A program made the position numbers and the translations under genes. Of a stretch of 64,000 bases of DNA, positions 3,856 to 51,925 are shown one piece after another (position 1 is the stretch's first letter; the number at the start of each line of letters is the position of its first letter). The notes below the pieces were generated by a model. The model had not been told where the DNA came from. It worked only from the letters and a program-made list of their open reading frames with translations, and made no database searches. The stretch comes from Cyanobacteriota bacterium (GTDB lineage Bacteria > Cyanobacteriota > Cyanobacteriia > Cyanobacteriales > Nostocaceae). The stretch covers positions 64,001 to 128,000 of the forward strand of contig JBJOKS010000007.1 in assembly GCA_046045965.1 (NCBI GenBank), given 5' to 3'.

Positions 3856-3933
3856 TTTAGTAATGTAAATTTCTAGATGGGGGACTGGGGACTGGGAATA
3901 AAGCAGGGGAAGCAGGGGAAGAATAACTAATGA

Positions 3934-3999
3934 CCAATTACCAATTACCAATTACCAATTACCAATTACCTATTACCTATTACCTATTACCTATTACCT
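3934..3999. repeat. STRR heptamer array (CCAATTA/CCTATTA)n
   Basis: Seen directly. Similar arrays at about 156-180, 1629-1660, 2720-2742, 16726-16771, 22413-22444, 33829-33875, 45915-46011, 46808-46845 and 53101-53221. Confidence 0.9.
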
Positions 4000-25279: not shown

Positions 25280-25359
25280 ACATCGACAGTAGTAGCTAGA
25301 AACACAATTTTACTTTTTCTTTATCTTTGTCTATAAAATCAATTGTTGAGAAAATTAAT

Positions 25360-26343
25360 ATGAATACATTTTTCTGTTCTGACTATTCCCGACAAGTAGG
25401 AGAAGAAATTATTGGTAGTGCTACAAACTACCAAACTTATATTTTAGTAGAATGTCCTACACCTTGGATGTCAGAAGCATTTCAATCTAAATGGGTTCCT
25501 GATAATTTGCGGGTTTTAGTTGAAGAAGTAAAACGGAGTAAATTACCGATTAGATTTTTGTTAATTGCTAATGATGAATCACATCGAGTAGAACAAACTA
25601 CATTATTGATTTATCAAAAACAAGAAGGTTTAAGTAATGGCTACCGCAAGCAAGAATTCAAGTTACCAAATATTGAACAAGTAGCGGGAGTTGTGCGGAA
25701 ATGGTTATCAGGTGGAAATGCTGATTATCAAATAGAAAATAATATAACTAGAGATATTTTAGTTTGTACACATGGTAGCCATGATCAATGTTGTGCAAGA
25801 TATGGAAATCCTTTTTATTTTCATGCTAAAAATACTATTTCTGATTTGCAATTTGATCATGTAAGAATTTGGAGATCCAGCCATTTTGGCGGACATCGTT
25901 TTGCACCGACAGCCATAGATTTACCAGAAGCAAGATATTATGGAGTATTGGATCAAGAATCTTTCAGATCAATTTTAACTCGGACTGGTGATATACAATT
26001 TTTAAATAAAGTCTATCGGGGTTGGGGAATTTTGCCCCCGGTACTACAGGTTTTGGAAAGAGAAATAATTTTTAGTCAAGGATGGAATTGGTTTAATAAT
26101 AAAGTAGCAGGTAAAATTTTAGAGCAAAGCATGGATAATAATACAATGTTAGCAGAGCTAACTTTTGAAAATCCTGCTGGTTCTCTTTATACTTATCAAG
26201 CTAAACTTGTGAAAGATGCAGTGAAAACGCGAGTTTTAAAGAGTTCTTGTCATGCGACACAAGAGTGTTTGGTTGTTAAATATGCTGTAGATAATCTTGC
26301 TTTAGTTGATAGGAAAGTGGTTAGTTATGCCAATAATTATTAG
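25360..26343 (+). CDS. Sucrase/ferredoxin-like (thioredoxin-like 2Fe-2S) protein
   Basis: LVCTHGSHDQCCARYG and SSHFGGHRFAPT motifs. Confidence 0.9.
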   Translation: MNTFFCSDYSRQVGEEIIGSATNYQTYILVECPTPWMSEAFQSKWVPDNLRVLVEEVKRSKLPIRFLLIANDESHRVEQTTLLIYQKQEGLSNGYRKQEFKLPNIEQVAGVVRKWLSGGNADYQIENNITRDILVCTHGSHDQCCARYGNPFYFHAKNTISDLQFDHVRIWRSSHFGGHRFAPTAIDLPEARYYGVLDQESFRSILTRTGDIQFLNKVYRGWGILPPVLQVLEREIIFSQGWNWFNNKVAGKILEQSMDNNTMLAELTFENPAGSLYTYQAKLVKDAVKTRVLKSSCHATQECLVVKYAVDNLALVDRKVVSYANNY

Positions 26344-26569: not shown

Positions 26570-28669
26570 ATGCCGCCTGACTACTCCGGTCAAAATCTCC
26601 GAGGGCGCTCTTTTAAAGGTCAAAACCTGACAGGAGCTAACTTTAGCAAAGCCGATATTAGAGGGGCAGATTTTACCAACGCTATCCTTAAAGGTGCTAA
26701 TTTTAGCAAAGCCGATATTAGAGGAACAAATTTTACCAACGCTATCCTCAAAAATGCTGGTTTTAATGATGCTACGGCTGGACTAGTAGAAGTTGGCGAA
26801 ATTGGGCTAAAGATTTTAGTGATGCTACTGTTAGCACTATCAGGAGTTTTTTTAACGTTCATTAATTCAGTGATAAGATTGGCTCTTGATAACAAAAGCT
26901 CTACACATTTTATTAGTGGCATAGTTGTCCTAGTCATTGTGATAGTCTTTTTTATTGTCACTATTCGGAAGGGTTTAATAGCCGGAGTCTTAGCCGTAAT
27001 CGGAGCCGGAGCCTTAGCCGTAACTGTAGCTATAGTCATAGACTTAGACAGAGCAGAATTCAAAGCCGTAAGTGTAGCCAAAACCGTAGCCGTAACCGTA
27101 GAATTAGCCGTAACCGTAGCCGTAACCGTAGCCGTAACCGTAGCTATAGCAATAGTCATAGCCGGAACCAGAGTCTCAGCCATAGCCTCAGACATAGCCG
27201 TAGCTTTAGATAGAAACGTATACGGAATCTTAGGCGTAACGATAACCATAAGCATACTCGTAGCCTTAGATGGAGTCTTAGATGGAGCCTTAGTCTTAGG
27301 CGGAGTTTTCGGGCTTTTTAGTGCTTACATTGGCTGTCTTAGTTTGGCTGGAGATAAAAGAAATTCTTGGATTCGCTCATTTGCTATAGCTTTTGCAGCT
27401 ACAGGTGGAACAAGTTTTCGTGGTGCTGATTTAACTGATGCTGATTTTACTGGTGCAACCCTAGAAAACACAGATTTCAGAACAAAAAATCTAACGCGGA
27501 CTCGTTTTTATGAAGCTAAAAATCTTGATTTTGCTAGACTAGGTGATAGTATATTAAGTAACCCCTCTGTTCTATACTTGCTTGTTAATTCCGACACGGG
27601 AAGAAATTCCTATGTTGGTGCTAACCTCAGAGGTGCAAACCTGACAAATGCAAATTTGAAAAAGGCTAATTTAGAAAATGCTGATATTAGTGAAGCCATT
27701 TTACAAAATGCTTGTTTACAAGAGGCAAATTTGACTGGTGCTAACCTCAGAGGCGCAAACCTGACAAATGCAGATTTGGAAAAAGCTAATTTAAAAAATG
27801 CTAATATTAGTGAAGCCACTTTCCAAGACGCTTGTTTAAAAAGGGCAAACCTGACTCTTACTCAAGCTGTCGGTACTAATTTCACCAAAGCTCAAATGAC
27901 AGGCTCTTGTGTGGAAGCTTGGAATATTGACAGATCCACTAAGTTAGACAATGTTACTTGTGACTTTGTCTATCTTCTAGATGAACTCAAACTGGGAACC
28001 AATTATCGTGAACGTCGTCCTAGTAGTGGGGAATTTGAACAAAAAGAATTTACCAAATTATTTGAAGAAGTTTTAAACACTGTTGATTTAATTTTTCGTA
28101 ATGGAGTTGACTGGAAAAATCTTTCTAATCCTAGTGAGTTTGAAGTTGAAGATGAACTTACAAGTAGAAAATTAGAAATCCGGAGTACTGAAAATAAAAG
28201 GTATGGGGTAGTCCTTATTAAGGTTGCTATTCCTCAACTTGCTGTTTTCGTAGCCAATAATAATAATGTTCAAGTTGATAACAAAGTGGATAATAAAAAT
28301 ATGAATAACAGTAATGATTCCAGCCGTAATGTCGAAGTAGAGATGAATATTAAAGAAGCTACAGGAGTAGCAGGTAAGGTTATGGGAAATCAGATTATTA
28401 ATCCCAAGCAAAACCTAGCGGACTCTGCTAGTGAGATTCAACAATTACTTCAAATTCTCAATCAATCCTATCCTGCTGATATACCTACAGATACTCAAGC
28501 AGAAATTGACGTGGCGGTTAAGGGTATCAATAAAAATCCAGAACTAAAGGAACGGGTAATAGGTTCATTAAAAGCGGGTGGTATTGAAGCAATTAAAGAA
28601 CTTGCTGATAATCTTTATGTAAATGTTCTCATTGCTGCTTATGACGGATGGAAAAACCCCCAATCATAA
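26570..28669 (+). CDS. Pentapeptide-repeat membrane protein
   Basis: Two A(D/N)LxX pentapeptide blocks flanking a hydrophobic low-complexity region; RERRP motif; C-terminal QNLA..A.EIQQLL helical domain. Confidence 0.9.
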   Translation: MPPDYSGQNLRGRSFKGQNLTGANFSKADIRGADFTNAILKGANFSKADIRGTNFTNAILKNAGFNDATAGLVEVGEIGLKILVMLLLALSGVFLTFINSVIRLALDNKSSTHFISGIVVLVIVIVFFIVTIRKGLIAGVLAVIGAGALAVTVAIVIDLDRAEFKAVSVAKTVAVTVELAVTVAVTVAVTVAIAIVIAGTRVSAIASDIAVALDRNVYGILGVTITISILVALDGVLDGALVLGGVFGLFSAYIGCLSLAGDKRNSWIRSFAIAFAATGGTSFRGADLTDADFTGATLENTDFRTKNLTRTRFYEAKNLDFARLGDSILSNPSVLYLLVNSDTGRNSYVGANLRGANLTNANLKKANLENADISEAILQNACLQEANLTGANLRGANLTNADLEKANLKNANISEATFQDACLKRANLTLTQAVGTNFTKAQMTGSCVEAWNIDRSTKLDNVTCDFVYLLDELKLGTNYRERRPSSGEFEQKEFTKLFEEVLNTVDLIFRNGVDWKNLSNPSEFEVEDELTSRKLEIRSTENKRYGVVLIKVAIPQLAVFVANNNNVQVDNKVDNKNMNNSNDSSRNVEVEMNIKEATGVAGKVMGNQIINPKQNLADSASEIQQLLQILNQSYPADIPTDTQAEIDVAVKGINKNPELKERVIGSLKAGGIEAIKELADNLYVNVLIAAYDGWKNPQS
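26981..27304 (+). repeat. In-frame degenerate hexamer array, 54 units, consensus GCCGTA
   Basis: Manual parse: position 6 is A in 54/54 units and position 3 is C in 42/54. Confidence 0.9.
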
Positions 28670-28834
28670 ACTTTTACCACTAATTTCTGGTTTTTTTGGT
28701 TTAGGTTAAAAGTGCCGATATGATGGGAGGTAGAACCTCCTAGAAGGCATTCCCAGTCGGAGACTGGGAACAAGAGAAATTACTCAAAGTCCCCCTTTTT
28801 AAGGGGGATTTAGGGGGATCTATTTTCTATTCTA

Positions 28835-29701
28835 TTAATAACTACCTGCCAATTCTCTTTCTATTTTTAGCAAGGCTTCCACACGCATTTCAGTTGCAGG
28901 ATGACTAGAAAACAAATTACCTAAAAATTGCCCAGAAATGGGATGAATAATTAATAATGGTTCAAAGGCGGGATTAGCATTTAAAGGCATTTGCCTAGCA
29001 GTTGCTTCTAATCTTTGTAAAGCCTTAGCTAAAGCGCGGGGATTACCTGTTAATTTGGCAGCACCAGCATCAGCAGAAAATTCTCTGGTGCGGGAAATTG
29101 CTAATTGAATAATTGTGGCGGCTATAGGTGCAAGCATCACTGTTACTAGCACTCCCAAAGGATTTCCACCTCTTTCATTATCTCTTGAACCACCGCCAAA
29201 CCATAGGCTATAACTTAACATTTGTGCCAGGAAAGAAATCGCACCGGCGACAGTAGCAGCAACGGCTTGGGTTAAGGTATCACGATTAATAATGTGGGTG
29301 AGTTCGTGGGCAATTACCCCTTCTAATTCTTCCTCTGGTAAGATGTTTAAAATGCCTTCAGTAACGGCAACAGCAGCGTGTTCTGGGTCTCTTCCTGTAG
29401 CGAAAGCATTGGCAGTTTGTCCAGGAACAATGTACACTCCAGGCATGGGAATATTAGCACGGTTTGACAGTCTTTTTACCATGCGATAAAGTTCTGGTGC
29501 TTGGGCTTCGCTGACAGGTTGTGCTTGATAAACTGCCAAGGCAATTTTATCAGATTGATACCAGGAAAATAGGTTGGTAACTGCTGCTAATCCAATACCG
29601 ATAATTAAACCGCTAGTACCACCAATTACCCAATAACTAATTGCAATTAATAAGCCACTCAGTGCTGCCAATAAAGCAGCAGTTTTGAATTGATTTCCCA
29701 T
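28835..29701 (-). CDS. htpX: M48 zinc metalloprotease HtpX
   Basis: NAFATG, HELTH, SRTREFSAD, FSSHP. Confidence 0.93.
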   Translation of the reverse strand: MGNQFKTAALLAALSGLLIAISYWVIGGTSGLIIGIGLAAVTNLFSWYQSDKIALAVYQAQPVSEAQAPELYRMVKRLSNRANIPMPGVYIVPGQTANAFATGRDPEHAAVAVTEGILNILPEEELEGVIAHELTHIINRDTLTQAVAATVAGAISFLAQMLSYSLWFGGGSRDNERGGNPLGVLVTVMLAPIAATIIQLAISRTREFSADAGAAKLTGNPRALAKALQRLEATARQMPLNANPAFEPLLIIHPISGQFLGNLFSSHPATEMRVEALLKIERELAGSY

Positions 29702-33828: not shown

Positions 33829-33876
<48 letters not shown>

Positions 33877-51765: not shown

Positions 51766-51925
51766 GCAGGAGGCAGGGGAGCAGGGGAGCAGGGGAGCAG
51801 GGGACGCAGGGGAAGCAGGGGACGCAGGGGAAGCAGGGGACGCAGGGGAGGCAGGGGGAGGTTAATAACCCAATGACCAATGACCAATTACCAATGACCA
51901 ATTACCAATTATCAATTACCATTAA
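51766..51925. repeat. Composite STRR tract (GCAGGGGA 8/9-mers, then CCAATGA/CCAATTA)
   Basis: Seen directly between convergent genes. Confidence 0.9.

Follow-up and report, generated by a model that had tools for sequence, protein, structure and literature searches.

Gene organization at the locus

The window, that is, the whole 64,000-nucleotide stretch of DNA analyzed here, comes from a contig of a cyanobacterium of the family Nostocaceae. Its forward strand carries a gene for a pentapeptide-repeat membrane protein of 699 aa (26570..28669), defined by its open reading frame, its Pfam matches, and the syntenic orthologs present in two same-genus genomes. The gene is flanked upstream by a sucrase/ferredoxin-like gene (25327..26343, forward strand) and downstream by a peptidase M48 gene (28835..29701, reverse strand), both of which served as synteny markers and lie outside the mechanism considered below. 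PF00805 matched the protein in five stretches (E = 4.5e-47) with at least eight tandem pentapeptide repeats, and all of its Pfam matches were to pentapeptide-type families. From 5ʹ to 3ʹ on the forward strand, the gene contains a 60-bp tandem duplication in the N-terminal pentapeptide block (26632..26752), which was absent from seven of the eight aligned relatives; two non-repetitive, fast-evolving hydrophobic helices recognized by hydropathy (26801..26962); the hexamer array (26981..27304, codons 138–245); a 120-bp tandem duplication in the second pentapeptide block (27616..27856), which was absent from all eight relatives; and a C-terminal part found by alignment to be diverged (28130..28669). 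This last part is about 50 residues shorter than that of the orthologs and has a different helical tail at its end, and a Pfam search of it returned no family above the cut-off.

For the Ala-X copolymer that the array encodes, hydropathy predicts membrane segments with polar loops. The polar residues were clustered in the window array (p = 0.047) and in 32 of 44 arrays, with 12 arrays at p below 0.05. As these residues cluster rather than scatter, the hydrophobic stretches are probably still maintained. The architecture of the protein leads us to guess that it might be a variable membrane sensor or recognition protein. It resembles HglK, a protein of about 700 aa and largely unknown function with pentapeptide repeats and several predicted membrane helices (PMC8145042). 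HglK, as described in the accessible part of that source, has four membrane regions toward its N-terminus and 36 repeats toward its C-terminus, whereas repeats flank the membrane part on both sides in the window protein; the same description, on which this comparison is based, includes no Ala-X array.

Downstream of the gene, a short dispersed repeat is located at 28760–28830, where many contigs end loosely in all four runs compared. The window also contains many heptamer and nonamer tandem repeats (e.g., 3929–3998, 33829–33876, and 51773–51921), which we take to be of the kind typical of heterocystous cyanobacteria.

Composition of the hexamer array

Counts, codon words, and hydropathy identify the array as a decayed (GCC-X)54 repeat. 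Upon recounting the 54 in-frame hexamers from 26981 by script, we found G at position 1 in 37, C at position 2 in 31, C at position 3 in 42, G at position 4 in 27, T at position 5 in 38, and A at position 6 in all 54 units, reproducing every figure of an earlier reading made from the sequence alone (hereafter, the sequence-only reading); the frame is stop-free, as that reading had stated. An A is found at every sixth base 55 times in a row from 26980, which makes this the longest invariant period-6 column in the 5.29-Mb assembly; the next longest, of 44, lies within a Pro/Thr linker.

The 54 units are not independent decays of GCC GTA, since 46 of the second codons are words of intact relatives (GTA 18, TTA 10, ATA 10, and GGA 8; the other eight fall outside that set) and two 12-mers recur, three and four times. 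Most of the variation at positions 4 and 5 is thus inherited vocabulary rather than substitution. With a purity of 0.05, the window allele belongs to the interrupted arrays. Its C2 was changed in 23 and its C3 in 12 of the 54 units, a gap that was reached in 1–25% of simulation runs, and 52 of 162 G/C sites were changed in the array versus 49 of 233 in the flanks.

A constraint imposed by an antisense reading frame was considered and rejected: the 211-aa antisense ORF shares its wobble positions with the gene, the antisense Gly-X frame across the array is closed by 12 stops (10 TAA and 2 TGA), and family-wide G1 is no more variable than C2 or C3. When we scanned the same genome for further arrays of this type, only two other stretches were found, neither of them Ala-X; in the entropy scan, the signal was swamped by ordinary AT-rich third positions.

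A family of Ala-X arrays in cyanobacteria

Similar DNA was found in 45 of the 61 genomes searched, including the genome of the window. Scanning genome contigs with a profile yielded 549 confirmed relatives, 80 of which were kept; from the loci fetched, 108 arrays in 86 clusters were extracted. The named relatives were all Cyanobacteriota, one being a Caenarcanales genome. The Ala-X copolymer sits between the second helix and a conserved YIGW motif and is mostly 80–130 codons long. In pure copies (e.g., loci L056, L020, L122, and L144), each residue is encoded by one codon, GCC alternating with GTA, GGA, TTC, and some TTA, ATA, GTC, and ATC, and the window copy retains a trace of this usage. 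Most pattern matches had one array per genome, and nearly all of the 90%-identity clusters were singletons. A metagenome scan returned only distant relatives (seven), and a search of viral contigs only weak pentapeptide matches. A fixed word order, as a sign of a template, was also considered and rejected, as bigram counts in 18 pure arrays revealed mild preferences only. Our literature search, which mostly covered openly accessible papers, found no description of the array; the family is apparently undescribed and widespread in cyanobacteria.

Two variants stood apart. In four Moorena loci (L103, L111, L112, and L156), two family genes lie in tandem and the array takes an Ala-Ser-Ala-Ile form. 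In the Caenarcanales genome (L146), the gene is present with a decayed GCC array and was probably acquired by horizontal transfer.

Live and frozen arrays

In five Nostoc loci with a downstream pS of 0.07–0.15, the pure arrays were 34, 60, 100, 100, and 102 codons long and their word orders differed. Among alleles with near-identical flanks from bloom-forming genera, the Ala-X segments ranged from 25 to 95 aa in three clusters, and the interrupted alleles of two clusters were all 91 aa with point differences; members were counted only where both anchor motifs matched, and short nested alleles may be artifacts of repeat collapse in metagenome assembly. The re-ordering and resizing of pure, “live” arrays between close strains is therefore real. 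Interrupted, “frozen” arrays change by point mutation, as shown in close pairs, where the array pS was 0.05–0.15 and the pN 0.04–0.05, not faster than the flanks; the figures for live and frozen pairs apply to the pairs listed. In some pairs, the helices were more diverged than the downstream flank. The repeat expansion proposed in the sequence-only reading, and with it turnover, is supported. Length and order are polymorphic among close relatives, a polymorphism not seen for the allele of the window itself.

Contig pieces from three other studies matched the window without any difference (26819–27288, 27115–27426, and 26617–27041) in a check of 4 of 11 sequencing runs, among the matches listed, that used contigs only, in which rare variants are dropped. 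A further run covered just 15 bases of the array. One of the three studies is an RNA library, from which transcription is not demonstrable with contigs alone. As the flanks in these contigs were identical too, the identity of the array indicates stability in one lineage only. “Hypervariable” therefore describes the array correctly between lineages, no such variation having been seen within the lineage of the window, and near-identity in close relatives was found at the clone level only.

Codon conservation and selection

The array had been described as showing inverted codon conservation, with the synonymous third positions varying least. Across 50 arrays, G1, C2, and C3 of the GCC codon were changed in 468, 487, and 484 of 2332 codons (20%, 21%, and 21%), and these rates were alike (Wilcoxon p = 0.41 and 0.72); the 50 arrays were those of 86 cluster representatives that passed a phased-GCC filter, which would if anything favor a conserved C3. 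The inversion thus mostly dissolves, and for the GCC codon there is none, the synonymous C3 varying as much as G1 and C2 family-wide. T-to-C changes were also present in the arrays. Both results speak against the localized G:C-directed or diversity-generating retroelement (DGR)-like mutagenesis that had been suggested.

The high rate of amino-acid change was upheld: compared with the two same-genus orthologs, the window gene had pN/pS values of 1.4 and 1.8 in the array, where alignments are unreliable, and of 0.1–0.5 in the pentapeptide parts. Among same-genus copies, the pN/pS of the non-repetitive helices (26801..26962) was 1.1–1.4. In a quick tree, the terminal branch of the window gene was 0.81, compared with 0.14–0.17 for its sisters. 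Outside the array, the first and second codon positions of the window gene changed about as often as the third, and the conserved sites changed were 21 of 206 for A, 15 of 195 for T, 17 of 92 for C, and 32 of 141 for G. The long terminal branch, the first and second positions changing as fast as the third, the two duplications, and the different C-terminus point to relaxed selection on the window gene.

Basis of the invariant A

The first reason for the A at every position 6 of the window allele is the absence of the TTC word from it. A comparison with a same-genus genome over 207 shared genes (27,776 four-fold sites) showed differences at 20% of A sites and 30–32% of C sites. Neutral decay with the genome-wide spectrum predicted 6–11 changed A, and 54 of 54 A was obtained in 0–1 of 400 runs; with word avoidance added, this outcome was obtained in 0–7 of 400 runs, and with avoidance and slippage in 0.5–13% of runs. 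Plain neutral decay alone thus fails to explain the column, and AT-biased decay, named in the sequence-only reading as a possible refutation, reproduces it only as a tail outcome (at most 13%) when avoidance and slippage are included.

In 29 other arrays, the third A was changed in 35 of 873 words and the third C of Ala in 145 of 929 (ratio 0.26). At synonymous sites genome-wide, the corresponding values were 15% for A before GCC (n = 241) and 44% for GCC before G (n = 427), a ratio of 0.35. The family arrays spare A 1.3–1.5 times beyond the prediction of the context model. At the family rate, about three changed A would be expected in the window array and none was seen (P about 0.04, a value lowered by the exclusion of Phe words and their neighbors before the count), and several other family arrays had 0 or 1 changed A in 45–48 words. 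Within the family pattern, the window array thus falls in the tail, and a residual 1.3–1.5-fold sparing of A remains. The sparing is close to that at genome-wide synonymous sites of the same context, which speaks against the undescribed mutagenic process suggested in the sequence-only reading.

GGCC is the most depleted 4-mer in the genome, at 0.42 of expectation; GGTGCC and GGGCC are at 0.12 and 0.2 of expectation, and GGCGCC occurs four times. Before GCC, Gly is encoded by GGA in 73% of 114 cases versus 29% overall. The depletion of avoided words recurs in the same-genus genome and in pooled flanks, and we presume that these words belong to particular restriction or methylation enzymes. Many 6-bp restriction-type words are extremely depleted on both strands of the 5.3 Mb (GTCGAC 0, GACGTC 2, TGCGCA 4, and GGCGCC 4 occurrences). 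A depletion of the target sites of methyltransferases has been described for cyanobacteria (PMC4390886). Among 16 vocabularies, GTA plus GGA with the GCC spacer was the least or second least folded in the three arrays tested and one of three vocabularies free of avoided words, and A-to-G changes in pure arrays would convert the repeat into a strong hairpin. Ordinary decay together with the avoidance of restriction-type sites is the most likely reason for the invariant A, with no new mutator involved.

Two other candidates were rejected. Hairpin-driven expansion did not agree with folding, as 9 of 10 arrays folded less stably on the coding strand than base shuffles did. As for a general GC-biased conversion of coding repeats, the other coding repeats listed for the genome are, by eye, A/T-ending.

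Search for a template and a reverse transcriptase

A DGR comprises a template repeat, a DGR-type reverse transcriptase (RT), and adenine-directed variation. DGR targets vary at codon positions 1 and 2 with position 3 fixed, as the window array appears to do. Apart from self-overlaps, a blastn search with dust off against the same genome (assembly 92% complete) returned no match longer than 50 nt and no template repeat, and no DGR-clade RT was found in this assembly. The single RVT_1 match lies on another contig, and its best matches are all retron models. The template search called for in the sequence-only reading was thus negative. Adenine, the variable base of DGRs, is the invariant base of the array, and the one A column of the complementary strand does not vary the most. 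With no template copy and no DGR-type RT found in this assembly, and with adenine fixed, a DGR was rejected. The target in the window is also not a lectin fold; cyanobacterial FGS targets are treated in PMC7159879.

Behind the retron-type RT of this genome (L078:1297–3481, contig C75) lies a 335-aa ORF for which PADLOC gave no match; the pair is possibly a retron with an uncharacterized effector.

The GCC spacer and phage Gly-X repeats

Of 20 pure arrays, 18 have GCC as the spacer, although this codon makes up 15% of the Ala codons elsewhere in the array genes. The words are shared even by genes that differ at 63% of their flanking four-fold sites, saturation being 68%; the figure comes from pairwise counts, which are not independent. 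Of the 34 far-side protein-search loci in the tree, 24 used GCC more than any other Ala codon. GCC-containing queries recovered several of the deep pure arrays, and GCT-based pure arrays exist.

Phage genes with Gly-(Tyr/Ser/Asp) repeats contain the array words in reverse-complement form. We found 80 viral loci with GCC plus GTA/GGA/GTC arrays, a circular count because these words were used for the search. A codon-neutral pattern revealed GGC as the Gly codon in 13 of 16 AT-rich phage loci, drawn from 80 of at least 120 matches, versus 23% in the flanks. In these phage Gly-X arrays (viral loci L183–L262 and L305–L384), each residue has a single codon, GGC is retained even in AT-rich phages, and the third base is common to all X words of an array. 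TTC, a main cyanobacterial word, is rare in them. Like the cyanobacterial arrays, they have about 20–60 units in mixed order and an unvarying GGC/GCC spacer, and their words are the same once the opposite strand is read; they differ in being translated from that other strand as a hydrophilic polymer, the corresponding frame of the window array being closed by its stops.

A cyanobacterial CRISPR spacer (L067:1482–1522, genome G096) is a Gly-Ser/Asp-type hexamer repeat, the reverse complement of array words; a search against viral contigs gave no exact match. The DUF6948 partner gene of the phage module was found in 1 of 301 cyanobacterial genomes, and a search of the genome of the window gave no match; nor is the antisense Gly-X frame of the window array open, as is the frame behind an Sm-like gene in the phage module. 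The only DUF6948 plus Gly-X module in the 301 genomes lies on a 1.6-kb contig of 38% GC (L304, genome G529), which may be a contaminant or a phage fragment. A direct phage source for the arrays is weakly supported and was set aside, given the partner gene in a single genome and the spacer lacking an exact viral match.

Interpretation and alternative explanations

We consider it probable that the window array is an interrupted copy of a family-wide, GCC-anchored coding hexamer repeat, now frozen and decaying by ordinary point mutation under relaxed selection. Pure arrays would turn over by in-register slippage or by unequal recombination at the shared GCC spacer; such events would homogenize synonymous sites, and selection would retain the hydrophobic mix. 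Once enough interruptions had accumulated, turnover would halt, and alleles would then differ by point changes. In the window copy, the A would be retained for several reasons together: all inherited words end in A, the TTC word being missing; A is slower to change than C or G; an A-to-G change before GCC would create GGCC, every other Gly codon likewise producing an avoided site; and partly decayed units would have been duplicated. This explanation leaves the persistence of GCC in AT-rich genomes unaccounted for; a GC-rich spacer may anneal better during slippage.

Positive selection on the membrane segment, for instance in a receptor escaping phages or a self/non-self protein, would agree with pN/pS above 1 in the array and the non-repetitive helices, with C2 being changed twice as often as C3 in the window array, with the differing C-terminal parts of homologs, including a CHAT domain, and with the predominance of singleton clusters. 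We regard it as unlikely, because the non-synonymous bases of GCC are no faster family-wide than the synonymous one, the acceleration of the lineage spans the whole gene as relaxation predicts, frozen alleles show pN below pS, and the invariant A is not explained by selection alone. A local G:C-directed damage or conversion process, such as cytosine deamination in slipped single strands, would raise G/C change and spare A. It would account for the sparing of A left over after context correction and for the more frequent G/C change in the window array than in its flanks; C-to-G and G-to-C changes in the arrays (about 3–5%) also exceed A-to-T changes (about 1%), whereas genome-wide these two classes are similar. 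The residual is only 1.3–1.5 fold, however, the array pS of frozen close pairs is not above the flank pS, the array is identical in other samples, and some G/C variants are duplicated units, so that we hold such a process to be quite unlikely.

A shared source from which pure arrays would be written or refreshed, whether through a dedicated template-directed enzyme, exchange between distant paralogs, or capture of reversed phage Gly-(Tyr/Ser/Asp) repeats, is in our estimate very unlikely. The common words across nearly saturated flanks, the prevalence of GCC in the far-side protein-search loci, the viral loci, circular as their search was, with GGC kept in AT-rich phages, and the repeat-like CRISPR spacer of G096 would fit such a source. 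Against it stand the missing second copy in the same genome, the single array per genome in most pattern matches, the unlinked retron-type RT as the only RT found, the phage partner gene confined to one short contig, the spacer without an exact viral match, the rarity of TTC in phage arrays, the existence of GCT-based pure arrays, and the recovery of several deep pure arrays by GCC-containing queries. A bolder version, which we think improbable, is a combinatorial diversifier in which dedicated templated or GCC-anchored recombination would rewrite the array wholesale from a phylum-wide, phage-shared vocabulary, the window allele having dropped out of the process.

For the window array, a new mutator need not be invoked. 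What remains is a contingency-like locus, widespread and apparently undescribed in filamentous and bloom-forming cyanobacteria, in which the same gene encodes either a reshuffling random Ala-X membrane polymer or a fixed, loop-containing descendant. Such a locus provides a natural series in which to study the origin of membrane helices from simple repeats and the way in which synonymous codons become locked by restriction-site avoidance. Should the GCC spacer reflect a dedicated mechanism, it would represent a new route of protein diversification in bacteria and phages.

Comparison with known repeat systems

The pure arrays resemble the HIC arrays of fungal NLRs such as Podospora HNWD, which, according to the accessible part of the source, have near-identical DNA units, length polymorphism and reshuffling between strains, and related genes with and without homogeneity, with possible exchange between paralogs (PMC13449251). 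In the Ala-X family, too, the units of pure copies were homogeneous at synonymous sites, and length and order were polymorphic among close relatives. The words shared across saturated flanks, and the pairs whose helices have diverged further than the flank downstream, would fit unit exchange between paralogs or distant alleles. The systems differ in that the HIC unit is, in that account, a fold of 33–42 residues, whereas the unit here is two codons within a predicted membrane segment. HIC NLRs further have an NTPase and fixed hypervariable positions under diversifying selection, neither of which was seen here; no NACHT or NB-ARC NTPase was among the Pfam matches of the window protein.

The live and frozen alleles match the biphasic model of repeat evolution, with fast divergence among copies under strongly relaxed selection, followed by the fixation and conservation of each copy (Persi, Wolf and Koonin, PMC5120217). 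The abstract of that work deals with longer periodic repeats, and a phylum-wide synonymous vocabulary lies outside it.

In the TRADD-N and ternary conflict systems, a TRADD-N or effector-associated domain stands beside variable effector domains, as the accessible parts of PMC7159879 and PMC8195603 describe. No Pfam match to TRADD-N or effector-associated domains was found in the window protein or in two homologs, one of which has a C-terminal CHAT domain (L020, 1059–3260). Another family member (L032) has a long N-terminal extension. The CHAT domain and this extension suggest that a constant pentapeptide-membrane core may carry variable partner domains.
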